Shown: positions 4,754 through 57,560, counted from the stretch's first letter. The stretch is 64,000 bases of DNA from a virus (IMGVR_UViG_3300023707_000001); one strand, 5' to 3'. Translations and numbers: made by a program. Notes: generated by a model not told the origin, from the letters alone.

Positions 4754-5581
4754 TTGTATCAAAAGTTTACCGTTGAGTCAGTCCGCGTAGTTGAGGCTGA
4801 CCATGCAATAAACATCGGTTTTACATTTGATGTTGACGAAGACTCGGTAACAGACGCTTCTGTTTATGTAACGCAAAAGGGTACACTAAAACCTATAATC
4901 ATGTCGAAAGTAACCGTGGATGGCCCCACGGTTACTCTTGAATATGAGTCTTTGAATGTAAATACCGATTATGAAGTCGTTGTTACAAAAGATGTAAAGT
5001 CGATTATGGATGACGAGCTGGCTATCGAATTCAAGAAAAAGATTCGCATCATTTCCAGAGTGGATAGCACAGTAAACATCACCACGCCAATCGACTACGA
5101 AGAACTTGAGCAGCCAAAATTTGTATACGTTGAAGTTCCTGGGAAAAGCGGTAAAAAATTTGACCGCTTCCGGCTGCAGGTTGCATCCGACTATGGTTTC
5201 CTGAATGTAATTTACGATACGGTCATTGAAGGCCGCAACGAAGTAACGATTACCGGCTTAAAACCATCCCCGCAATATTTTGCACGAGTACGTGTGGAGG
5301 CCGGAACTAACGAACGCGGAAACTGGTCGGAACCTCGTACATTTATATTAAAGGGCGAGCCGGAGCCGGACTACACGGAACATGATGAGCCGAAACAGGA
5401 CAGCGAGAAAGAAAAACCTGCCGCAGAAGATGAGGCGTTTTTTGAAGATGATTTTGAGATAGTCGGATATCCCGAAAATGGTGTGACGCCAAACGGCAGC
5501 TTTATTATCGAGTTTGATGGAGACATTGATACATCATCCATCGATATTTCAAATATTGTACTGACAAGAAAGCAGGTGTGA
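4754..5581 (+). CDS. Ig-like/fibronectin type III domain structural protein
   Basis: Beta-rich; FN3-like TGLKPSPQYFARVRV...GNWSEP; TTG start after AGGTG. Confidence 0.6.
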   Translation: MYQKFTVESVRVVEADHAINIGFTFDVDEDSVTDASVYVTQKGTLKPIIMSKVTVDGPTVTLEYESLNVNTDYEVVVTKDVKSIMDDELAIEFKKKIRIISRVDSTVNITTPIDYEELEQPKFVYVEVPGKSGKKFDRFRLQVASDYGFLNVIYDTVIEGRNEVTITGLKPSPQYFARVRVEAGTNERGNWSEPRTFILKGEPEPDYTEHDEPKQDSEKEKPAAEDEAFFEDDFEIVGYPENGVTPNGSFIIEFDGDIDTSSIDISNIVLTRKQV

Positions 5582-5582
5582 A

Positions 5583-6257
5583 GTGGAGCGCGTAAATTTT
5601 TCCTATAGAGTTTTTGATAACTGCCTGGAGATTATCCCAGACGAAGGTATTAAAAACAACAGCGTCTACAAGCTAACTCTGCGTGATATTCGGTCTGCAG
5701 AAGGCCATAAAGTACTGGATAAAAAGACTTTTGAAATCACGACAGCAATGACACCTGCTTATTGCTCTGTGGATGCTATTCGTACACTTGTGGATGTGTT
5801 TGACGTATCAGAATCCACGATACTGTTTCAAATTAGGCAGGCCAGTAAAGAAGCGGACTTCATCTGGCGTTCTGTTTACGATAAGCCGATTGTGCGCGAT
5901 GCGGATGGGAATTATCCGTTCCCTATTGAGCGCTTTACAGAAGTCCGTGCGAGCCAGCTTGCCTTAACAAAAGCATACATTACAGGTACGTCCGAAAGCG
6001 GCCTGGAGGGCACACTTGGTAAAATTTCCTTCAAGAATGGAGAGGAACTGGGAAATATCCGTAAACTTATCGATGACCTCAAGAAGGAAGCAGATAAGTG
6101 GCAGGATGCTATTCGTGGCTATGTATTTGGCGGCAGAAATACTCCGGCATACGCTTTGCGTGGCAATCGTTCGTGGCGTGCTACGCCGGCTGCAGCAATT
6201 CTCAACAATTACAACCGCAATGGCAATATGGGCCTTAAAGGAGGCTACATTATCTAA
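5583..6257 (+). CDS. Head-tail adaptor/neck-type protein
   Basis: Ig-like N-terminus then helical domain starting PAYCSVDAIR; gene position. Confidence 0.5.
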   Translation: MERVNFSYRVFDNCLEIIPDEGIKNNSVYKLTLRDIRSAEGHKVLDKKTFEITTAMTPAYCSVDAIRTLVDVFDVSESTILFQIRQASKEADFIWRSVYDKPIVRDADGNYPFPIERFTEVRASQLALTKAYITGTSESGLEGTLGKISFKNGEELGNIRKLIDDLKKEADKWQDAIRGYVFGGRNTPAYALRGNRSWRATPAAAILNNYNRNGNMGLKGGYII

Positions 6258-6718
6258 TGTTAGACCCAAGCTTTAATAAAAAGATACGCAAGATAATTCA
6301 CAAACTGGAATATAAGATGTATGTGGTTATTCTCGATAAAAAAATGGCCTGCACTTGTCGTGACGTAAATGACACGCCAAACCCGGACTGCCCTAAATGC
6401 TTGGGTACAGGCCACCGTGTTAAGGTAAAACGTATAACCGGCGTTATGGAGCCAGATGAGGTATCACTCCGTCTGGAAGGGCAGCAGCAGGCAGCTCCAT
6501 CCAACTATTATTATTTCGACGCAGATAAGGTGCCCAAGGAAGCGGTAGCTGCGGGAAATATTATTGTGCGGGAAGATGAGGCGGATATTTTACAGGGCGC
6601 AAAGAAATATCGCTCCGATTCAAACAGGGTTATCTACTATTATACCGAAGCCGTCCCGATGAAATCTAACATTAAGCTTTTTCTGAAAAACTTTTACAAT
6701 CTGGTGAGAGTAAAATGA
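6257..6718 (+). CDS. Head closure/neck protein with Zn-binding motif
   Basis: CTC...CPKCLGTG motif; overlapping stop/start; neck position. Confidence 0.55.
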   Translation: MLDPSFNKKIRKIIHKLEYKMYVVILDKKMACTCRDVNDTPNPDCPKCLGTGHRVKVKRITGVMEPDEVSLRLEGQQQAAPSNYYYFDADKVPKEAVAAGNIIVREDEADILQGAKKYRSDSNRVIYYYTEAVPMKSNIKLFLKNFYNLVRVK

Positions 6719-7734
6719 TTACAAACATTAAACAGATTGATAAACATAAGTCGGTACTGCTCATTGGTATCGGAGAGACAAATAAATACCTGCACGATAT
6801 TGTACGGCCGGAACGCATATCAGAGGCCAGAGAAGTCTTTGGGGAATGTGACTTGGTTAGCTCCTATGAGCTTCTTGCACAAGACAATGAGGATAAAGAC
6901 ATCTTTATGATGAATATCGAGTTAATGACAGATTATCTCGATATTGCCCAGCTGGTGTCCAGCTATGACTTTGCCTATGTAGTTCCTATCGATGTAGGTA
7001 TCTCCAATTTCTTCTACGATCCGCACAATGACGGCAGGAAGACGTTTTATATTCAGTATCTTATCGAGGCACTGAAAGAAGAAAGTGATACAGTTTTTCT
7101 TGTCACAGATACACACGCAACCCTTTATCAGGATATTGACCAGTTTTTGCAAAGCATGCGTTATCGTGAAAAAGAGTTTCGGGCGGCAATAAAACTGCAG
7201 CACACGAAGCGACAGATTGTATTTGTTGCTAACAACCTGAATGAGGTTAATTACGGAAATGTTGAGCTTGCTCGCATGATTTTATTGTCAGAAGTAAATG
7301 AATATCCGATTGATAATAGGAGAGTAAGCGCCGTTTTTAATATCGACTTTACTGACGATATTGGAAGTATGGCTTATTTTAAGACGCATGCAAACGGGGT
7401 AACAACGGTTGAAAACCTCTTAAACTTTGATGATGAGGAGGAGCCGACAAAGATATTTTTCATTTACCGTATTTGCCTCTATATTGCAAAAGAGCTGGAC
7501 TTTACGGAATATATTGGCTCTAAATATATTCCCTACAAGAAGCAACGGGTTGAAAGTATCGTATCACAGTACCTTGATACCCTGGTCGGTTTTATTATAA
7601 CAGGTTATGAGATTAACGAAGTGTTTGCAAAAGAGGACCCGCTGCACCCCGGCACGGTTAATATCATTCTCCGATATTCCATACAGCCGGTAGGTTGCTC
7701 GGAGCGCTTTATTACAAGAACGCTAAAGATTTGA
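6715..7734 (+). CDS. Short tail-sheath-like protein
   Basis: C-terminus (EYIGSK...IVSQYLDTL..FIITGYEI...VNIILRYSIQP) parallels the sheath C-terminus at 8445-11489. Confidence 0.5.
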   Translation: MITNIKQIDKHKSVLLIGIGETNKYLHDIVRPERISEAREVFGECDLVSSYELLAQDNEDKDIFMMNIELMTDYLDIAQLVSSYDFAYVVPIDVGISNFFYDPHNDGRKTFYIQYLIEALKEESDTVFLVTDTHATLYQDIDQFLQSMRYREKEFRAAIKLQHTKRQIVFVANNLNEVNYGNVELARMILLSEVNEYPIDNRRVSAVFNIDFTDDIGSMAYFKTHANGVTTVENLLNFDDEEEPTKIFFIYRICLYIAKELDFTEYIGSKYIPYKKQRVESIVSQYLDTLVGFIITGYEINEVFAKEDPLHPGTVNIILRYSIQPVGCSERFITRTLKI

Positions 7735-20370: not shown

Positions 20371-21666
20371 CTATTTTAACCCGCCTGGTAAGTCGCCATG
20401 CTTCTCCTGCCAGTCGCGGAGGAATCCATTGTTTTCAGGGGTCTGTTGTACGGACTCTTCTTTGTGTTCGCGAATGGCCTCGGCTATTTTCAGTGGCTCA
20501 AATATGGGGTCGTAACTTGAGGCAGCATCTATGACTTCATCACGATACTGTGGCGCGCGAAGTACTATTCTCGTGGCAAGCGCCTTAAATGATTCGTCGG
20601 AAAGATTGCTTTTTAACATGGTCCGCAGATATCCGCCAGTATTAATGCTGCTGGGGGGTGTTCCCTTTTCTTGTAGCTTGCCAAGATTGATACAGGTTTC
20701 AAGGATAGCTCTCCAAACCTTAGCGGGTTGGCTCTGATATTTAACGATAGAAGTTTTACCGAACCCAAGAGACTCCATCTTCTGGGCCAGGTAATCCCAT
20801 CCAGGGACACCATATTCATCAAATAAAACGAAAGATGACTTTGCTGGAATAAGTGGTGTAGGTGCAGCATTTAATGCAACCACAAACACAAATTCCGTAA
20901 GTTTTTGGCCGGGAGAATTTGTCGATATCTCGTCAGTGTTCAGTATCTTAAACTGAGATTTGGGAGAAGAGTTGATATCATCGATGGCCTTCAGCACTAC
21001 GTTTCTCTTGTAATCATTAGGGCTGGACAGTTTGAATTTTCCGGTTTTTTTGTTAACTGGAGTAGGAACACGCTTTCTTAGCTCATTGTATGGAACGGTT
21101 ATGCGGTAAGGGTATGGTGAATCATTAAACTTTTCTTCCGCAACGCGGGCAGACAACCATTCGTAAAACGGATAGGTATAAGCGCTGGAACTTTGTTCAT
21201 GAAATTCATAGTCCATCTGAAATGCAGGATTGCAAAGAACATTCTCGATATAGAAGTCCTGATACTCCTTATTGATGGTTATTCTCACCAATCCCTTGTT
21301 TTGATTTTGTTTTACGGACGAAAGCAGCCAGTATGTAGCTTTCTTAAAACCCTGATTTTTCTCAGTACTATGTTTGTAGTTAACAGTAACATTGAGAGGG
21401 ACTTTTGTCAGGTCATCAAAGACTTTCTCAAAAGATTGGTAAAGCGAGTGCCAACTTTTAACGTTCTTAGCGACAGCCAACTGGCGAAAATCAATATCAA
21501 AAGTAATGGGGACGGTTATGTCTCCACCATTTTCCACATAGTCTTGTATACCTTTGCGAATCGCTACGATAAAGTCAGATTCGTGTTTTGTAGTTGCCCT
21601 ATTTGGGCTTCCAGAAGCCAGCTCCAGACTGGAAAATAGCGATGTTTGTTCAAAGTTTGATTCCAT
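20371..21666 (-). CDS. Plasmid-type replication initiator (Rep_3/RepB-like winged helix)
   Basis: YTYPFYEWL..YNELRKRV..NDYKRNVVLKAIDDIN pattern; ATG 21666 with GGAGG 9 nt upstream; adjacent iteron array. Confidence 0.75.
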   Translation of the reverse strand: MESNFEQTSLFSSLELASGSPNRATTKHESDFIVAIRKGIQDYVENGGDITVPITFDIDFRQLAVAKNVKSWHSLYQSFEKVFDDLTKVPLNVTVNYKHSTEKNQGFKKATYWLLSSVKQNQNKGLVRITINKEYQDFYIENVLCNPAFQMDYEFHEQSSSAYTYPFYEWLSARVAEEKFNDSPYPYRITVPYNELRKRVPTPVNKKTGKFKLSSPNDYKRNVVLKAIDDINSSPKSQFKILNTDEISTNSPGQKLTEFVFVVALNAAPTPLIPAKSSFVLFDEYGVPGWDYLAQKMESLGFGKTSIVKYQSQPAKVWRAILETCINLGKLQEKGTPPSSINTGGYLRTMLKSNLSDESFKALATRIVLRAPQYRDEVIDAASSYDPIFEPLKIAEAIREHKEESVQQTPENNGFLRDWQEKHGDLPGGLK

Positions 21667-51413: not shown

Positions 51414-51953
51414 GTGGTGATAAAAGTGATAGATTTAGAAATGACAGAGAACGGCGATATTAACTGGTCCTCCGAACCCAGCATATCGACTTTCCGCTTG
51501 CGCTTTGCGCTGTCAGACTACAAAACGCAGCATATTCATTTCTTGTGTATGCCGACAAGCCGGAGGCAAAATGTTCCGCCAAAGAAAGGGCAGCATATTC
51601 AGTTCCGCTATGTAGAGCATGGTGATGAACTGAAACTGCAGACAGGACTTGTGCAGGAGCAGAAGGAAACACTTCAATCCTTATATATTGCCTTAAGAAC
51701 AGAACTTGGCGACGTAAATGACGATACGGTAGGTTCCGATTTTTATAAGGTGTCACATAAGATAATTACGGAAAGTAATGACCTGACCTATATTCGTGAC
51801 AGGGCGGGGGAAGTCGTGCAGAAATTCTTCCCCGGCACGCTGCTGGAGGCAGAGTATGTTATCTGCCCAGAGGCTGGCAACTTCAAATACCAGTCTGTAA
51901 AATTCACAATAAAAGATAAAAACAATGAGGTTATCGCCTCATTTGTATTCTAA
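51414..51953 (+). CDS. Baseplate wedge protein (gp25/W-like)
   Basis: IDLEMTENGDI..LRTELGD..VGS pattern; baseplate position. Confidence 0.5.
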   Translation: MVIKVIDLEMTENGDINWSSEPSISTFRLRFALSDYKTQHIHFLCMPTSRRQNVPPKKGQHIQFRYVEHGDELKLQTGLVQEQKETLQSLYIALRTELGDVNDDTVGSDFYKVSHKIITESNDLTYIRDRAGEVVQKFFPGTLLEAEYVICPEAGNFKYQSVKFTIKDKNNEVIASFVF

Positions 51954-51980
51954 GGGAGCAAAAAAGCTCCCTATTTTTTT
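51953..51980 (+). terminator. Terminator insulating the NAD island
   Basis: agggagc-aaaaaa-gctccct-attttttt. Confidence 0.75.
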
Positions 51981-52011: not shown

Positions 52012-52060
52012 TTGACAAATGTAGTAATGTGTACTATGATTAACGTAGTACAAGATACCA
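52012..52060 (+). promoter_or_regulatory. sigma-A promoter with two NrtR-type operators
   Basis: TTGACA(52012)-17 nt-TATGAT(52035); TAGT-N7-ACTA (52022-52036) and TAGT-N7-ACCA (52046-52060). Confidence 0.8.
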
Positions 52061-52078
52061 CATAGAGAGGTTAAAAAA

Positions 52079-52852
52079 ATGAAACAGTCACAGGAAGAGA
52101 AAGAATTTCTCAAGAGCTACAACGCAGCGCAGTACGAAAGGCCGTCGGTAACGGCAGACGTTGTTATCTTTACTATTGATAAGGATAATGACCTGAGTAT
52201 CCTGCTGATAAAACGCGGTGGCCATCCATACAAAGACCACTGGGCGATACCTGGCGGATTCTTGGAAGCAGGAAAAGAATCTATCGATGAAGCTGCGGCC
52301 CGCGAATTGTATGAGGAAACAGGGATAAAAGTTTCCGACGGTATTGAACTTCGGCAGCTTATCACGATGGGCGAACCGAACCGTGACCCAAGAACACATG
52401 TTGTAAGTGTAGTTTACACAGCATTGGTTCCTAAAGGGCTCTTACATATCAAAGCCGGAGACGATGCGAAAGAAGCACAGCTCTTCAAGATTCGCGATTG
52501 GTTCGACGAAGAGGGGAATATTAAGACTCGTTTTATCGGTGACAAGATTTCCCTTACCATGGACAACCTAGCGTTTGACCATGCCCGTATCGTAGAGGTT
52601 GCAATAGAAAGGCTTCGCGGCAGATTAAGTTACACGAATGATGCTTTTGCAATGCTTAAGGATAAAAAGTGCTTCAGAATTTACGAGCTTAAGAAGATTC
52701 ACGAAGCCATCCTGCAGAAAGTAATCGACCGGGCGAATTTCAGAAAGATGTTTATTCGAAACTTTGTCGATACGGGGAAGGTTCGAGAACTGGATAAAAG
52801 TGAGGTAAAGGGCGCAAAAACAGCAATGTATGCCCTGCTTGATAGTCAATAA
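52079..52852 (+). CDS. nrtR: NrtR: Nudix domain + winged-HTH regulator of NAD metabolism
   Basis: YERPSVTADVVIF, WAIPGGF..AARELYEETG, RDPRTHVVS, LAFDH; C-terminal DRANFRK wHTH. Confidence 0.9.
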   Translation: MKQSQEEKEFLKSYNAAQYERPSVTADVVIFTIDKDNDLSILLIKRGGHPYKDHWAIPGGFLEAGKESIDEAAARELYEETGIKVSDGIELRQLITMGEPNRDPRTHVVSVVYTALVPKGLLHIKAGDDAKEAQLFKIRDWFDEEGNIKTRFIGDKISLTMDNLAFDHARIVEVAIERLRGRLSYTNDAFAMLKDKKCFRIYELKKIHEAILQKVIDRANFRKMFIRNFVDTGKVRELDKSEVKGAKTAMYALLDSQ

Positions 52853-53120
52853 CCCCCGCCTAGCGGCTTTGCGCTTGAGGCGGGAGCTTGCGGAAGCAAG
52901 CTCTGATTGACTAGCCTAAGTCTTAACTGACTACGTTGCTTTCGTTATCTCACCCGTGGGTGTTTATCCTAGCTTACGGCTCTGAGCAGGCTCTGTAAAA
53001 GTTCTGAGAGGTAGGAACGGTCAACCTGAGGACGGTCTGGCGTTAATCCAGACAAGCGATTACAACATTGGCGAAGGGTAGATTACTCTAATTTGAAGCT
53101 TTTGCTTCGGAAAGGAGGTA
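52845..53120 (+). ncRNA. omegaRNA (HEARO-like) scaffold of IscB
   Basis: ~275-nt structured leader with GTCAA..GATTGACTAGCCTAAG..GACTACGTT..AACATTGGCGAAGG elements typical of IscB omegaRNAs. Confidence 0.8.
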
Positions 53121-53126
53121 CACGTT

Positions 53127-54395
53127 ATGTTCGTGTACATCATTAACAAAAACGGACAGCCGCTAATGCCCTGCAAGCCTCAAAAAGCAAGAAAGCTCCT
53201 GAAGGCTGGCAAGGCGGAGGTTGTCAAATATGAGCCATTCACTATCAAGCTGAAATTTGGCTCAGCTGGCTACAAACAGCCGATAACTTTAGGTATTGAC
53301 GCCGGCTCCAAACATATTGGGGCTTCCGTGTCAACAGAAAAACAGGAATTATATGCTTCGGAAACAGTCATGCGTTCTGATGATGGCAAGGCTACTATCG
53401 TGAATCTTATAGCAAAACGCAGAGAGCTTCGACGTAACCGCAGAAACCGTAAGACCCGTTATCGCGAAGCAAGATTCTTAAACCATGTTCATCGCAAGCA
53501 CAAAGGCTGGCTTGCTCCAAGCGTAGAGAACAAAATCCATGTCCACCTAAAGCTGGTGGCGGATATCCACAAGATACTGCCCATCACTAAAGTAGTGGTG
53601 GAAGTTGCCCAGTTCGACATTCAGAAGATTAAGAATCCTGATATTTCCGGTGTCGAATATCAACAAGGTGAACAACTTGGTTGGGCTAACGTCAGGGAAT
53701 ATGTATTATTCCGCGACAATCACGAATGTCAGTGTTGCAAAGGCAGATCTGGAGATCCGATACTGAATGTGCATCACATTGAGTCGCGAAAAACTGGCGG
53801 CAACGCACCAAACAATCTGATAACTCTCTGCGAACATTGCCATCAGAGCTATCACCAAGGCAAAATTTCTTTACCTAAGTCGATACATCGCGGCATGAGT
53901 TTCCGAGATGCAGCTTTCATGGGCATCATGCGATGGGCATTCTACAATAGAATTAAGGCGTTATATCAAGACGTCAAACTAACTTATGGTTACATCACGA
54001 AAAATACTCGCATCAAGAATAACATTGCCAAGACACATACAGCTGACGCTTACTGTATCGCCGGGAACGTCAAAGCTAGACGGCTTAAACATGAGTATTT
54101 ACGTAAGCAAGTTCGCAGGCATAATCGCAAACTACATCGAGAAGTGCCAGCTAAAGGTGGTATTCGTCGATTGGCTCAAGCAGGGCATTTCGTAAGAGGC
54201 TTTTGCTTGAACGATACTGTGATGGCCAAAAATCAGCAGTGGTTTATTCGAGGCATGCGTCAAAAGGGCAGTTTTGTTCTAAGACATCTTGATGGCACAA
54301 AACTGGAAATTGCGCTTTCAAAAATAACATTTTTGAGACATAACAATTCTTATTTAATCGAGAGGAGAGAAGTGGCGCTTACCTCCACCCTGTAG
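53127..54395 (+). CDS. iscB: RNA-guided endonuclease IscB
   Basis: PLMP N-terminus; RuvC-I GIDAGSK; Arg-rich bridge helix; RuvC-II VVEVAQFD; HNH VHHI..NLITLCEHCH; RuvC-III HTADAY. Confidence 0.95.
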   Translation: MFVYIINKNGQPLMPCKPQKARKLLKAGKAEVVKYEPFTIKLKFGSAGYKQPITLGIDAGSKHIGASVSTEKQELYASETVMRSDDGKATIVNLIAKRRELRRNRRNRKTRYREARFLNHVHRKHKGWLAPSVENKIHVHLKLVADIHKILPITKVVVEVAQFDIQKIKNPDISGVEYQQGEQLGWANVREYVLFRDNHECQCCKGRSGDPILNVHHIESRKTGGNAPNNLITLCEHCHQSYHQGKISLPKSIHRGMSFRDAAFMGIMRWAFYNRIKALYQDVKLTYGYITKNTRIKNNIAKTHTADAYCIAGNVKARRLKHEYLRKQVRRHNRKLHREVPAKGGIRRLAQAGHFVRGFCLNDTVMAKNQQWFIRGMRQKGSFVLRHLDGTKLEIALSKITFLRHNNSYLIERREVALTSTL

Positions 54396-54440
54396 AGGGT
54401 GGAGTCCCCGCGCCGCGATTTTAGATGGAGGAAAATAGTC

Positions 54441-54998
54441 ATGGAAAATAAGAAAAAAGTATTAATCGTTGTGGATATGCAGAACGACTTTATCGACGGT
54501 GCGCTTGGAACAAAAGAAGCCCAGGCTATTGTCGACAATGTAGCCAAGAAGGTTGCGGAGGCAAAAAAGAACGACGATGTCGTTGTCTTCACACAGGATA
54601 CGCATACGGAAGACTACCTCAATACGCAGGAGGGTAAGAATCTGCCGGTGCCTCATTGCATTAAAGGAACAGATGGTTGGGAGATAACCAGCAAAATTGA
54701 CATTCCTAAAGAATGCCTGATGTACGAAAAAGGTTCCTTTGGTTCTGGTGAACTTGGCAAAGACCTTTCCGATAGCGAAGGGGAAATCAGTGCAATTGAA
54801 TTCGTTGGGCTCTGCACAGATATCTGCGTACTTTCCAACGTGGTTATCGCAAAGGCTGCGCTGCCAGAAGTCCCCATCACAGTAGATGCGGCATGCTGCG
54901 CGGGCGTAACACCGAAGAGCCACGATGAAGCTCTTGGTGCATTGCAGATGATTCAGGTAAAAGTCGTAAATCAAGGACAGGAACCCTGGAGGGCATAA
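54441..54998 (+). CDS. pncA: Nicotinamidase (isochorismatase family)
   Basis: VVDMQNDF, QDTH, PHCI, K, GLCTDICV; ATG 54441 after GGAGG. Confidence 0.88.
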   Translation: MENKKKVLIVVDMQNDFIDGALGTKEAQAIVDNVAKKVAEAKKNDDVVVFTQDTHTEDYLNTQEGKNLPVPHCIKGTDGWEITSKIDIPKECLMYEKGSFGSGELGKDLSDSEGEISAIEFVGLCTDICVLSNVVIAKAALPEVPITVDAACCAGVTPKSHDEALGALQMIQVKVVNQGQEPWRA

Positions 54999-54999
54999 A

Positions 55000-55527
55000 A
55001 TGCGCGTCGGTATTTTTTTCGGGTGCTTCATCCCGTTACATAAGGGCCATGAAGAAATGATTCGCTTAGCAATGAAGGAAAATGACCACCTGATTCTTGG
55101 TATATGTGGATACGATAACGACCGAGGAAAGGGGTATCTTTCATTCAGAGAACGACTAAGGTTAATGACAAAACTTTTTGGCGACAAGGAAAATGTGACG
55201 CTTGCAGTTGTGGATGATAAGAAAGTCGGGCTCAAGGGAACATTTAGCGTGAACGCCTGGAAGCTTTGGTCGGACGAATTGTTTGAGAATGCCAAATTCA
55301 ATCCGAACGACAAGTCTCACCAGTACACCTGGTATTCTGGTGAGCCGGACTATCTGGAAAAGATACAGGAACTTTACCCGACCCACGAAATAAAACATAT
55401 ACCGAGGACGTTAATTCCTATTTCGGGAACTCAGATTAGAAACAATACAACTAAGTACAGGGAAGATGTTAATCCGCTTTTTGCAGTCTATCTTGCAGAG
55501 CGGGGATTGATGGAGGAAAAATTATGA
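55000..55527 (+). CDS. NMN/NaMN adenylyltransferase (NadM/NadR-N-like)
   Basis: GCFIPLHKGH (HxGH) and ISGTQIR motifs; no kinase domain; inside NAD operon. Confidence 0.75.
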   Translation: MRVGIFFGCFIPLHKGHEEMIRLAMKENDHLILGICGYDNDRGKGYLSFRERLRLMTKLFGDKENVTLAVVDDKKVGLKGTFSVNAWKLWSDELFENAKFNPNDKSHQYTWYSGEPDYLEKIQELYPTHEIKHIPRTLIPISGTQIRNNTTKYREDVNPLFAVYLAERGLMEEKL

Positions 55528-56741
55528 AATTCAAACAGATTATTAACTCACTTCTGGAAACCGACCTTTACAAATTCAGCATGGGGCAGGCTATCTTCCA
55601 CCAGGCCAGCGAATTTGAAACGACCTGGTCATTTAAGTGCCGTAACAAGGATGTGTTCTTCACCCCTGAAATGGTTGAAGAAATCCGCGAACAGATTCGT
55701 GCGTTCTGCAATTTGAGTTTTACAGAAGATGAACTGGATTATCTTGCCAATATCAAATGGCTGAAAAAATCCTACATCAATCACCTCCGCTTGTGGCATC
55801 CGAACTTTGACAATTTCATTATTAAAGCGGGCGGAGAAAAAGGGCTTATCCTTGAAGCAAAAGGAACGCTTCTTGATACCTCCATGTATGAAATTCCGAC
55901 TCTGGCCATTGTCAATGAGGTGTATTTCCGGTTCCGTGACGACTACGCATTGCTCGTTGAAGATTCAAAGGCACGGACAAGAGCAAAGGCAGAAAAGCTC
56001 CAGATGGGGAAATACTGGCTGCCGGTATTCTCTGAATTTGGCCTTCGCCGCCGCCTTTGCGCAGAAGCACAGGAATATGCTGTAGAAACATTCTCGAAAC
56101 TGGATTGTCACGATGTATTGCGTTCGCATTTTGTCGGTACGTCCAATGTTTATCTGGCCAAGAAATATGGTGTAACTCCTGTCGGCACGATGGCGCATGA
56201 ATGGATTATGTGCATGGGACAGGGCAATCATCTTTACAATCCGGCATATTCCAACAAGGTAGCTCTTGAAGCTTGGGTAAGAGAATATGGCGTGGATAAT
56301 GGTATCGCTCTTACTGACACGATTACTACGGACTGCTTCTTGCGTGATTTCGACAAAACACTGGCAACGCTCTTTAGCGGTGTCCGTCACGATTCTGGCG
56401 ATCCGTTTGTGTGGGGCGATAAGATGATTGACCATTACACCCGCCTTGGTATTGACCCTGCAACAAAGACCCTGCTGTTCTCAGATTCTCTTGATTTTGA
56501 GAGAGCTGATAAAATTGCGCGTTATTTCCAGGGTAAGGCAAAAGTAGCTTTTGGTATTGGTACTTATATCTCAAACGATACCTACGCAACGCCGCTAAAC
56601 ATCGTTATGAAGGTTACGGAATGCAACGGAAGCCCGGTGGCCAAAATCTCCGATACGGAAGGTAAGGGAATGTGCAAGAGTCAGGAATATGTTGACTACC
56701 TGCAGCGTTCGATTGACTGGCGTCTGAAAAACAACGATTGA
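55524..56741 (+). CDS. pncB: Nicotinate phosphoribosyltransferase
   Basis: LETDLYKFSM, EFGLRRR, GTSNV, GTMAHEW, GVRHDSGDP, FSDSL, FGIGT, KISD. Confidence 0.92.
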   Translation: MKFKQIINSLLETDLYKFSMGQAIFHQASEFETTWSFKCRNKDVFFTPEMVEEIREQIRAFCNLSFTEDELDYLANIKWLKKSYINHLRLWHPNFDNFIIKAGGEKGLILEAKGTLLDTSMYEIPTLAIVNEVYFRFRDDYALLVEDSKARTRAKAEKLQMGKYWLPVFSEFGLRRRLCAEAQEYAVETFSKLDCHDVLRSHFVGTSNVYLAKKYGVTPVGTMAHEWIMCMGQGNHLYNPAYSNKVALEAWVREYGVDNGIALTDTITTDCFLRDFDKTLATLFSGVRHDSGDPFVWGDKMIDHYTRLGIDPATKTLLFSDSLDFERADKIARYFQGKAKVAFGIGTYISNDTYATPLNIVMKVTECNGSPVAKISDTEGKGMCKSQEYVDYLQRSIDWRLKNND

Positions 56742-56752
56742 GAGGAATAAAT

Positions 56753-57523
56753 ATGTATCCAGAATTTGACGCGGAAAAAGACAAACAAAAAATTATTGAT
56801 TTTATCAGAATGTGGTTTGCGATAAATGCAAGCCTGGACACAAAAGCTGTTATCGGAATTTCAGGCGGCAAGGATTCTTCTATTGCTGCAGCGCTCTGCG
56901 TAGAGGCGCTTGGAAAGGATAGTGTCGTCGGCGTACTTATGCCAAACGGTGTACAGGCAGATATTGACGATGCTCTGGCTTTGGTAAAACACCTTGATAT
57001 CAAATACCGCATTGTAAATATTGAGGCGCCTTACAAGGCTATGCTAAAGGCCATCCAGTACACAGAAACAGCAAGTGACAATAATTTTTACTTTTCCGTG
57101 ACCAGCCAGCTCACGCAAAATCTGGCTCCGAGACTTAGAATGGCAACTCTGTATGCAGTAGCGCAGGGGGTTCATGGCGGCGGCCGTGTAATTAACACCT
57201 GTAACCGTTCGGAAGATTATGTTGGCTATAGCACAAAATTTGGCGATAGCGCCGGCGACATATCTCCTCTTGGAGCATATACGGTTGATGAAATTCTCGC
57301 TATTGGCGATACGCTCGACCTGCCTGAAAAGCTCGTACATAAGGCGCCATCTGATGGCCTTTGCGGTAAGACCGATGAAGATAACCTTGGGTTTACTTAC
57401 GCAGTGCTTGATAAATACATCAAGACGGGAGAGTGTAAAGACGAAGTCACCCAGAAAAAGATTGACGAACTGCACGATAAAAACCTGCATAAACTGAAAC
57501 CACTACCAATGGTTGAGCGGTAA
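56753..57523 (+). CDS. nadE: NH3-dependent NAD+ synthetase
   Basis: GISGGKDS, NLAPRLRM, GYSTKFGD, KAPSDGL..TDEDNLG; no glutaminase domain. Confidence 0.92.
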   Translation: MYPEFDAEKDKQKIIDFIRMWFAINASLDTKAVIGISGGKDSSIAAALCVEALGKDSVVGVLMPNGVQADIDDALALVKHLDIKYRIVNIEAPYKAMLKAIQYTETASDNNFYFSVTSQLTQNLAPRLRMATLYAVAQGVHGGGRVINTCNRSEDYVGYSTKFGDSAGDISPLGAYTVDEILAIGDTLDLPEKLVHKAPSDGLCGKTDEDNLGFTYAVLDKYIKTGECKDEVTQKKIDELHDKNLHKLKPLPMVER

Positions 57524-57526
57524 GAT

Positions 57527-57560
57527 AAAAAGCCTCTATCGAAATGATGGAGGCTTTTGT
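57527..57560 (+). terminator. Terminator closing the NAD island
   Basis: aaaagcctctatc-gaaat-gatggaggctttt. Confidence 0.8.

Follow-up and report, generated by a model that had tools for sequence, protein, structure and literature searches.

When would a phage that carries its own genes for rebuilding NAD have them expressed? The question is raised by a 64,000-nucleotide stretch of DNA (hereafter the window), which is the reverse strand of positions 61117-125116 in the 235,547-bp IMG/VR virus record IMGVR_UViG_3300023707_000001, estimated to be 96% complete. The carrier is a 235-kb rumen phage that has aboard an NAD-recycling operon together with nrtR, a gene whose product is assigned here to the NrtR family. 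In bacteria, NrtR, its operators and its response to ADP-ribose (ADPR) have been known since 2008 (Rodionov et al. 2008, PMC2330246), and no description of a phage-encoded NrtR was found in the literature searched. Overall, the analysis leans toward a host-derived unit under NrtR control, through which NAD would be rebuilt on demand.

A promoter and two candidate operators ahead of nrtR

From the sequence alone, an initial annotation had proposed that nrtR is the first gene of a unit read from a TTGACA-17-TATGAT promoter, that one palindrome, GTAGT-N7-ACTAT, overlaps the spacer and -10 of this promoter while another, GTAGT-N7-ACCAC, lies 24 bp downstream, and that the two palindromes are NrtR operators. 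Each of these elements is found in the window:

52012..52040, + strand, sigma-70/sigma-A type promoter, TTGACA-17-TATGAT, an 11/12 match and the best in 48-60 kb
52021..52037, no strand assigned, putative NrtR operator 1, GTAGT-N7-ACTAT, over the spacer and the first -10 bases, 17.4 bits
52045..52061, no strand assigned, putative NrtR operator 2, GTAGT-N7-ACCAC, over the expected transcription start, 20.8 bits
52079..52852, + strand, nrtR, 257 amino acids, with Nudix-like effector and winged-helix DNA-binding domains, ATG at 52079 and stop at 52850-52852

The -35 (TTGACA, 52012-52017) and the -10 (TATGAT, 52035-52040), separated by a spacer of 17 nucleotides, lie between a terminator and nrtR, whose start follows the promoter region and is preceded by a GAGAGG ribosome-binding site. 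Operator 2 begins at 52045, not 52046, and lies 24 bp downstream of operator 1. With at most one mismatch allowed, GTAGT-N7-ACTAC occurs at just these two places in the 64 kb, where 0.77 occurrences are expected per window.

The sites were scored with a symmetrised weight matrix built from 16 upstream sites at other loci, the window and its 87%-identical relatives having been left out of the training set. Applied to the window, the matrix gives 20.8 bits for operator 2 and 17.4 bits for operator 1, and the next best match, 10.2 bits at window position 21373, was set aside as background. Across the whole 235.5-kb genome the two operators rank first and second, the third match reaching 11.6 bits, and about 0.05 sites of at least 17.4 bits are expected per genome (estimated from 5 Mb of Markov-random sequence). 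Because no other strong site is found in the genome, the predicted regulon of the phage NrtR is this single operon.

Comparative material was gathered by homologue-alignment scans, which yielded 80 genome loci and 49 viral loci; a megablast search of the operon against GenBank phages returned no match, and relatives were instead drawn from IMG/VR and genome scans. Operators were counted at the 36 orthologous loci at which NrtR is at least about 50% identical, and 670 control segments were drawn from the same loci; neither the spacing nor the partner sites had been used in training the matrix. An upstream site of at least 14 bits is present at 35 of the 36 orthologous loci, as against 1 of the 670 control segments, and a second site exactly 24 bp away is present at 27 of the 36, as against none of the 670. 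When the count is confined to the 21 loci absent from matrix training, 20 have the site and 14 its 24-bp partner. The operator pattern is, moreover, about 70-fold enriched upstream of the orthologues (20 occurrences in 8,970 bp vs 11 in 328,931 bp). Its consensus, RTRGT-N7-ACYAY and often ATGGTA-N5-TACCAT, agrees with the 21-bp palindrome with a GT-N7-AC core of most NrtR groups (PMC2330246).

The arrangement of the sites is conserved as well. A TTGACA-like -35, a first site over the spacer and -10, and a second site 24 bp further on are common to Selenomonas loci (L006-L009) and to a second jumbo phage (L090). Operator 2 is identical in sequence in the relatives L002-L005 and in a contig of a Selenomonas metagenome-assembled genome (L006), and the relatives read GTGGT-N7-ACTAC at the position of operator 1. 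In a comparison with L002, whose NrtR is 87% identical, 3 of the 50 positions in the block that begins with TTGACA and ends with ACCAC are changed, as against 15 of the 23 positions immediately preceding the -35. Within nrtR, the proportions of nonsynonymous and synonymous differences against L002 are 0.075 (pN) and 0.76 (pS), these proportions being given because saturation of the synonymous sites leaves dN/dS not computable for this pair (L002 vs L004: 0.09). Because the block is conserved while its flank and the synonymous sites have diverged, the promoter-operator block is judged to be under selection within the phage lineage.

These data bear directly on the notion that the palindromes are chance matches or plain promoter sequence with no regulator bound. 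In its favor, an 11/12 promoter match is not rare in this genome, and the palindrome pattern of the initial annotation, taken alone, is expected nearly once per window. The comparative data nevertheless refute it for practical purposes: the two sites hold the top matrix scores in the genome, their spacing is fixed across orthologous loci and not in controls, and the block has been conserved amid randomised flanks and synonymous sites. The same ranking and conservation bear out the assignment of the sites to NrtR, and we regard it as highly probable that NrtR represses at these two operators.

Two variations on the layout were also observed. At L006:1773-1813 and L090:4920-4960, site 2 is almost exactly the reverse complement of site 1, also in the central N7, such that the pair forms a single 41-bp inverted repeat; the central bases differ in the window. 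In two of the Selenomonas loci (L008 and L009), the tandem is joined by a third and weaker site, placed 24 bp further downstream and some 70 bp before nrtR; three operators in register suggest that binding is cooperative and runs along a single face of the DNA.

The putative repressor and its nucleotide pocket

Sequence and predicted fold both identify the phage protein as a two-domain NrtR. Pfam recognizes a NUDIX domain at residues 27-141 (PF00293, 1e-19) and an NrtR winged-helix domain (PF21906 NrtR_WHD, 27.8 bits, cut-off 27), and phmmer searches of PDB sequences give near full-length matches to EF2700 of E. faecalis (2fml, 2.8e-32) and to the Shewanella oneidensis protein, SoNrtR (3gz5, 3.9e-23, to residue 235). 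An AlphaFold2 (AF2) model, computed as a monomer on 21 homologues (pLDDT 87.1, pTM 0.85), has as its top folds 2fml (EF2700), 5bs6 and 3gz6, all of them two-domain NrtR-family proteins. The fold matches include Bacteroides AraR as well as SoNrtR both free and on DNA; the alignment to DNA-bound SoNrtR (3gz6) spans 243 columns with a TM score of 0.72 normalised by target, and the Nudix domain matches that of SoNrtR in complex with ADPR (3gz8). The N-terminal Tyr that enters the pocket of the partner subunit in the domain-swapped dimers of EF2700 and SoNrtR is kept as Y14.

DNA binding by the NrtR proteins of Shewanella and Synechocystis (SoNrtR and SyNrtR) is suppressed by ADPR and not by NAD, nicotinamide, ribose-5-phosphate or others (PMC2330246), and the NrtR of Mycobacterium smegmatis is an autorepressor released by ADPR (PMC6800001). 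The paper on AraR lists Tyr10, Phe15, Arg41, Asn43, Lys76 and Arg98 as the residues through which SoNrtR contacts ADPR, and these contacts were mapped onto the phage protein through the phmmer alignment, a mapping taken as valid because all six residue types sit at the chain index minus 3. Four of the six are kept, Y10, F15, R41 and R98 corresponding to phage Y14, Y19, R46 and R105; Y14, R46 and R105 are invariant in a 21-sequence subfamily alignment, in which position 19 is always aromatic. In the arabinose sensor AraR, the Asn43, Lys76 and Arg98 contacts are replaced and the nucleotide cleft is filled. The pattern seen in the phage protein supports a retained nucleotide pocket, with ADPR or a near relative as the candidate ligand.

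The Nudix box of the phage protein reads GGFLEAGKES...RELYEETGI. As the initial annotation had noted, RELYEETG is kept and one extra residue follows the first Gly, and alignment agrees on both counts: REUXEEXGU is intact, whereas GX5E reads GX6E owing to an extra K66, which places six residues between Gly and Glu. All residues of EX7REUXEEXGU are present (E67, R75, E76, E79, E80 and G82), E80 being the canonical second Glu of the box. The GX6E spacing is common to the whole cellular subfamily, in which the canonical spacing is seen in a single member and the box has degenerated in several, for example to RELRTETN. In characterized proteins an intact signature goes with activity, as the comparison of NuhA with Slr1690 illustrates (PMC2330246), and hydrolysis of ADPR by the phage NrtR is thus possible.

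Operon content, host origin and an inserted IscB element

The genomic linkage of nrtR to NAD metabolism is provided by the four genes downstream, which share with it one terminator-bounded unit lying amid phage structural genes. The order is terminator, promoter, nrtR, IscB element, pncA, adenylyltransferase gene, pncB, nadE and terminator, and the features beyond those given above are as follows:

51953..51972, + strand, intrinsic terminator upstream of the operon, a 7-pair stem (5 G-C) followed by a T run
52844..54423, + strand, IscB/omega-RNA element of IS200/IS605 type without tnpA, 1,580 bp, with omega-RNA at 52845-53086 and iscB at 53127-54395
54441..54998, + strand, pncA-like nicotinamidase gene, Pfam Isochorismatase 8e-25
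55000..55527, + strand, gene for a NadR/NadM-type nucleotide adenylyltransferase, 175 amino acids, Pfam CTP_transf_like 4.6e-7
55524..56741, + strand, pncB, nicotinate phosphoribosyltransferase, NF003704 471 bits, cut-off 379
56738..57523, + strand, nadE, NAD synthetase, TIGR00552 169.7 bits, cut-off 63.65
57528..57558, + strand, intrinsic terminator at the operon end, a 14-pair stem followed by a T-rich tail

The upstream terminator is also present in the relatives L002-L005 and is predicted to insulate the operon from the preceding structural genes. For pncA, the open reading frame call begins at GTG 54399, and homology together with a Shine-Dalgarno sequence favors ATG 54441; its product is 91% identical to that of L002. 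The adenylyltransferase is of the NadR/NadM, or nicotinamide mononucleotide (NMN), type and not of the NadD type, has no kinase domain, and matches TIGR01526 (nadR_NMN_Atrans) at 1.7e-24, which is under the family cut-off. As a separate observation, this protein is 66% identical between the window and L002, while the neighboring operon proteins are 83-93% identical. Elsewhere the phage encodes a LigA-type NAD-dependent ligase (genome 184175-184864), and together the two might allow recycling of ligase-derived NMN. No phosphoribosyl pyrophosphate (PRPP) synthetase was found in the phage genome (no Pribosyltran_N match across it), nor was a macrodomain protein found in the phage. Rfam matches to snoZ6 inside nrtR and to a Thr leader at the terminator scored under their gathering thresholds and were dismissed.

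The nearest cellular NrtR proteins are those of Selenomonas ruminantium (65-70% identity), followed by those of rumen Lachnospiraceae and Clostridia (about 60%). In S. ruminantium HD4 (L007) the order nrtR-pncA-pncB-nadE and the tandem operators are the same as in the phage, and the encoded proteins are 68.5% (NrtR), 56% (PncA), 84% (PncB) and 72.5% (NadE) identical to those of the phage; the phage adenylyltransferase has no counterpart in this operon. Because order, operators and proteins correspond in this way, the enzymes, the repressor and the cis elements are concluded to have been captured en bloc from a Selenomonas-like host, with the adenylyltransferase gene added, and Selenomonas-like bacteria are probably the host range of the phage. 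Selenomonas NrtR shares the operator motif and has an almost identical recognition helix (NFRKMF).

Similar units recur in other phages. In the relatives L002-L005 the operon is the same except that it lacks the IscB element. The 253-kb jumbo phage L090 (IMGVR_UViG_3300028591_000074, 4983-7557) encodes an NrtR that is 61% identical behind the same tandem operators, and the genes that follow, namely a radical-SAM-like gene, an adenylyltransferase gene and pnuC, point to another salvage route under the same switch. In Bacillus phage G (L138, NC_023719.1 200123-204125), the gene for an NrtR-like protein (gp273) heads a cluster whose products include an isochorismatase (gp275) as well as a nicotinate phosphoribosyltransferase (gp277); gp273 is annotated solely as a MutT/NUDIX hydrolase, and its residues 1-231 can be aligned with NrtR, a span that takes in the DNA-binding domain. 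In the very AT-rich region upstream of gp273, no GT-N7-AC palindrome of this type was seen.

The IscB element, which the initial annotation did not mention, separates nrtR from the salvage genes. Its omega-RNA (Rfam HEARO 116.6 bits, cut-off 83) accounts for the gap of 275 bp that follows nrtR, its iscB is recognized by the NCBIfam model guided_IscB (NF040563, 376 bits, cut-off 175), and a hairpin lies near 54384-54405. The boundaries were drawn from a 98%-identical allele (P0002) and from a second copy in the genome, the empty site being deduced from protein tails. Specifically, the P0002 NrtR tail ends ...ALLDDGGNNHGK, whereas the tail in the window reads ...ALLD, SQ and stop, and a remnant of the old nrtR tail, GATGGAGG..., picks up again at 54424; because the P0002 tail diverges at the one point and the old tail resumes at the other, the element is placed at 52844-54423. 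It is inserted right after TTGAT (52839-52843), on the same strand as nrtR; no more of NrtR than its 8 C-terminal residues, which are poorly conserved, has been replaced, and the nrtR stop and the pncA start, which used to overlap, have been separated. Besides its absence from the 87% relatives L002-L005, the element is missing, as judged by protein tails, from the 96-98% alleles P0002 and P0003. The second full-length IscB/omega-RNA copy (L136, genome 208162-209762) is 77% identical, scores 83.7 bits with HEARO, contains a 432-amino-acid open reading frame, and has the same starting bases and a different left flank. With the nrtR tail as the 5' flank that would serve as guide, alleles of related phages that lack the insertion would be the expected targets of the nuclease, and their cleavage would favor homing or retention of the element.

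Proposed mechanism, alternatives and significance

The mechanism proposed here builds on family membership, on the reality and conservation of the operators, on their overlap with the promoter, and on the content and host origin of the operon, all of which are established in silico; what is inferred beyond them is that NrtR represses the operon, which effector it answers to, that it and host NrtR cross-talk, and any part that it may play against host defence. NrtR dimers would bind the two 17-bp palindromes of the RTRGT-N7-ACYAY type and, seated on the -10 and the start point, would shut out the host RNA polymerase, two dimers over the -10 and start point being a classic polymerase-exclusion arrangement. 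Because nrtR is the first gene, the operon would repress itself. A nucleotide effector in the Nudix pocket, most likely ADPR, would weaken the affinity for DNA, and the nicotinamide-to-NAD pathway would be made when NAD is cleaved, be it by a defence NADase or by another NAD consumer. Incoming phage DNA would meet no phage NrtR, and host Selenomonas NrtR may keep the promoter shut until ADPR rises; phage NrtR could in turn act on the host operon, such cross-talk being predicted because the Selenomonas orthologues share the motif and a near-identical recognition helix. By analogy with characterized family members and from the residues of the pocket, ADPR or a close NAD-derived nucleotide is probably the inducer. 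The view of the initial annotation, that the unit senses the NADases of host immunity, is plausible; that selection in the phage has favored it for this specific function is possible rather than probable. More doubtful still is the full scenario for giant phages, in which ADPR released by an immune NADase lifts phage or host NrtR and turns on NAD rebuilding, and the Nudix activity of NrtR may reset the switch by destroying the inducer.

Several points weigh against NrtR-controlled rebuilding of NAD on demand, and more so against an immune role. The module was inherited whole from a host in which it serves ordinary NAD homeostasis, and it bears no mark of immune adaptation. Expression in the first round of infection hinges on host NrtR or is unregulated. 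Transcription through the 1.58-kb structured IscB/omega-RNA element into pncA-nadE is assumed, and terminator prediction gave none on the + strand of the element. The genome holds 10 promoter matches of at least 11/12, and about 6 are found in random genomes; promoter strength was rejected as an argument, such matches being near chance level genome-wide, and the weight of the promoter comes from its position and conservation, not from the quality of its match. The best NCBIfam family, NF050029 (the equivalog model for the ADPR-responsive repressor NtrR), scores 133.5 bits against a cut-off of 400, which makes the protein a member of the NrtR family but no equivalog of this narrow model. Other effectors are on record in the family, namely NAD for NdnR of Corynebacterium glutamicum and arabinose for AraR, as summarized in the AraR paper, and by this analogy family membership alone does not fix the effector. 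Two of the six SoNrtR contacts are changed in the phage protein (N43 to G48 and K76 to E80), and with its near-intact Nudix box the protein might hydrolyse its own inducer.

Closest to the preferred reading is an inherited housekeeping control, in which NAD is topped up for needs of the phage such as its ligase and the heavy demands of replication, with NrtR limiting the cost through feedback; it overlaps NrtR-controlled rebuilding on demand and differs solely in what selection maintains the module. It is available because the NAD-dependent ligase of the phage creates an NAD demand of its own, and it accords with the shared gene order and tandem operators of S. ruminantium HD4, with the added NadR-type adenylyltransferase, which could re-adenylate ligase-released NMN, and with a survey of gut jumbo phages that reads NAD gene clusters as metabolic remodelling (PMC11662467). 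Phage NAD reconstitution has, however, been shown to counter NAD-depleting defences (10.1101/2024.02.11.579819; PMC13464706), and LigA turnover yields NMN and AMP, not ADPR, such that an ADPR-type sensor would not report on the ligase. We hold this housekeeping control to be a serious possibility that falls short of probable.

Two further alternatives concern what the protein binds and what it does, and both are judged improbable, to a similar degree. The ligand may be other than ADPR, with candidates including NAD as a co-repressor in the manner of NdnR, nicotinic acid adenine dinucleotide (NaAD), NADP or an ADPR isomer made by a defence system. The response of C. glutamicum NdnR to NAD, the two changed contacts and the suppression of SoNrtR binding by NaAD, NADH, NADP and pADPR (PMC2330246) all fit such a ligand; against it, ADPR is the most effective of these on SoNrtR, NAD has no effect on SoNrtR or SyNrtR, and the adenine-stacking and the phosphate and ribose contacts (Y14, Y19, R46 and R105) are kept. 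The protein may otherwise be chiefly an active ADPR pyrophosphatase, bifunctional or mainly an enzyme, that releases AMP and ribose-5-phosphate, its DNA binding being secondary or self-resetting. This would suit the intact REUXEEXGU, including E79 and E80, which sets it apart from the inactive NrtR proteins of S. oneidensis, Synechocystis and M. smegmatis, and would parallel NuhA, an NrtR-family protein with intact signature and high ADPR pyrophosphatase activity. It sits less well with GX6E in place of GX5E, with the degenerate boxes of some close subfamily members, which imply relaxed catalytic constraint, and with a winged-helix domain and operators that are clearly under selection. Because the phage has no PRPP synthetase with which to use ribose-5-phosphate, the feeding of this product into PRPP, which the initial annotation had suggested, would depend on the host.

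The closest parallels are found among the bacterial NrtR regulons of NAD salvage (PMC2330246), which share with the phage locus a two-domain repressor, tandem GT-N7-AC operators and an operon headed by nrtR; S. ruminantium (L007) matches it in gene order and operator layout, and S. oneidensis has functional tandem operators before prs-nadV. Unlike the bacterial loci, the phage locus is phage-borne and terminator-bracketed, includes an extra NadR-type adenylyltransferase gene and is split by IscB, and its NrtR keeps the Nudix catalytic residues, in contrast to the degenerate boxes of SoNrtR and SyNrtR. NuhA of Synechococcus sp. likewise retains REUXEEXGU, with GX5E where the phage protein has GX6E. 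The M. smegmatis autorepressor (Gao et al. 2019, PMC6800001) resembles the phage proposal in its release by ADPR and differs from it in its operator (GTTTTCGA-N7-TCGAAAAC), in its control of the de novo genes nadABC, in its degenerate and inactive box, and in its chromosomal location.

Among phage systems, NARP1, NARP2 and NARP3 (10.1101/2024.02.11.579819; PMC13464706) also rebuild NAD, and the present operon is, like them, a plausible answer to NAD-depleting defences. Its predicted route is the deamidating Preiss-Handler pathway (PncA, PncB, adenylyltransferase and NadE), unlike the Adps/Namat, Nampt/Nmnat and PnuC/NadR-like routes. Specifically, the PRPS-like ADPR pyrophosphokinase and Namat of NARP1 are not represented, the operon proteins belonging to other families and the genome lacking Pribosyltran_N; where NARP2 has Nampt and Nmnat, the phosphoribosyltransferase here is of the nicotinate-specific PncB type in a pathway with PncA and NadE; and neither the PnuC nor the ribosylnicotinamide kinase of NARP3 is in the operon. 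The text of the NARP1/2 preprint (10.1101/2024.02.11.579819) does not contain NrtR, the NARP3 paper (PMC13464706) mentions it solely as a bacterial regulator, and the dedicated metabolite-sensing repressor predicted here has no equivalent described in either. The gut jumbo phage Kuafu_71, with clustered pncB-nadD-nadE (PMC11662467), is similar in its animal-gut origin and in its clustered pncB and nadE, and the survey that describes it, unlike the phage locus, contains no Nudix/NrtR regulators or operators (0 occurrences of 'nudix'). In the literature searched on phage NAD reconstitution, the enzymes are treated as constitutively expressed and no dedicated sensor is mentioned.

The locus thus offers a fully specified and easily cloned switch, a 50-bp promoter-operator block with a 257-residue repressor, which is suited to asking whether a host defence, through its own product, can switch on the phage measure directed against it. 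Although the phage is uncultured, the sigma-70 consensus type of the promoter should make this switch workable in Escherichia coli. In addition, the locus is a record of the capture by a phage of a whole host regulon, cis elements included, and from it one would predict that host and phage repressors cross-talk. If sensing of immune NADase activity is what maintains the switch, a defence's own product would trigger its antidote; if the control is ordinary inherited homeostasis, the locus would represent a well-characterized, known regulon in a new carrier.

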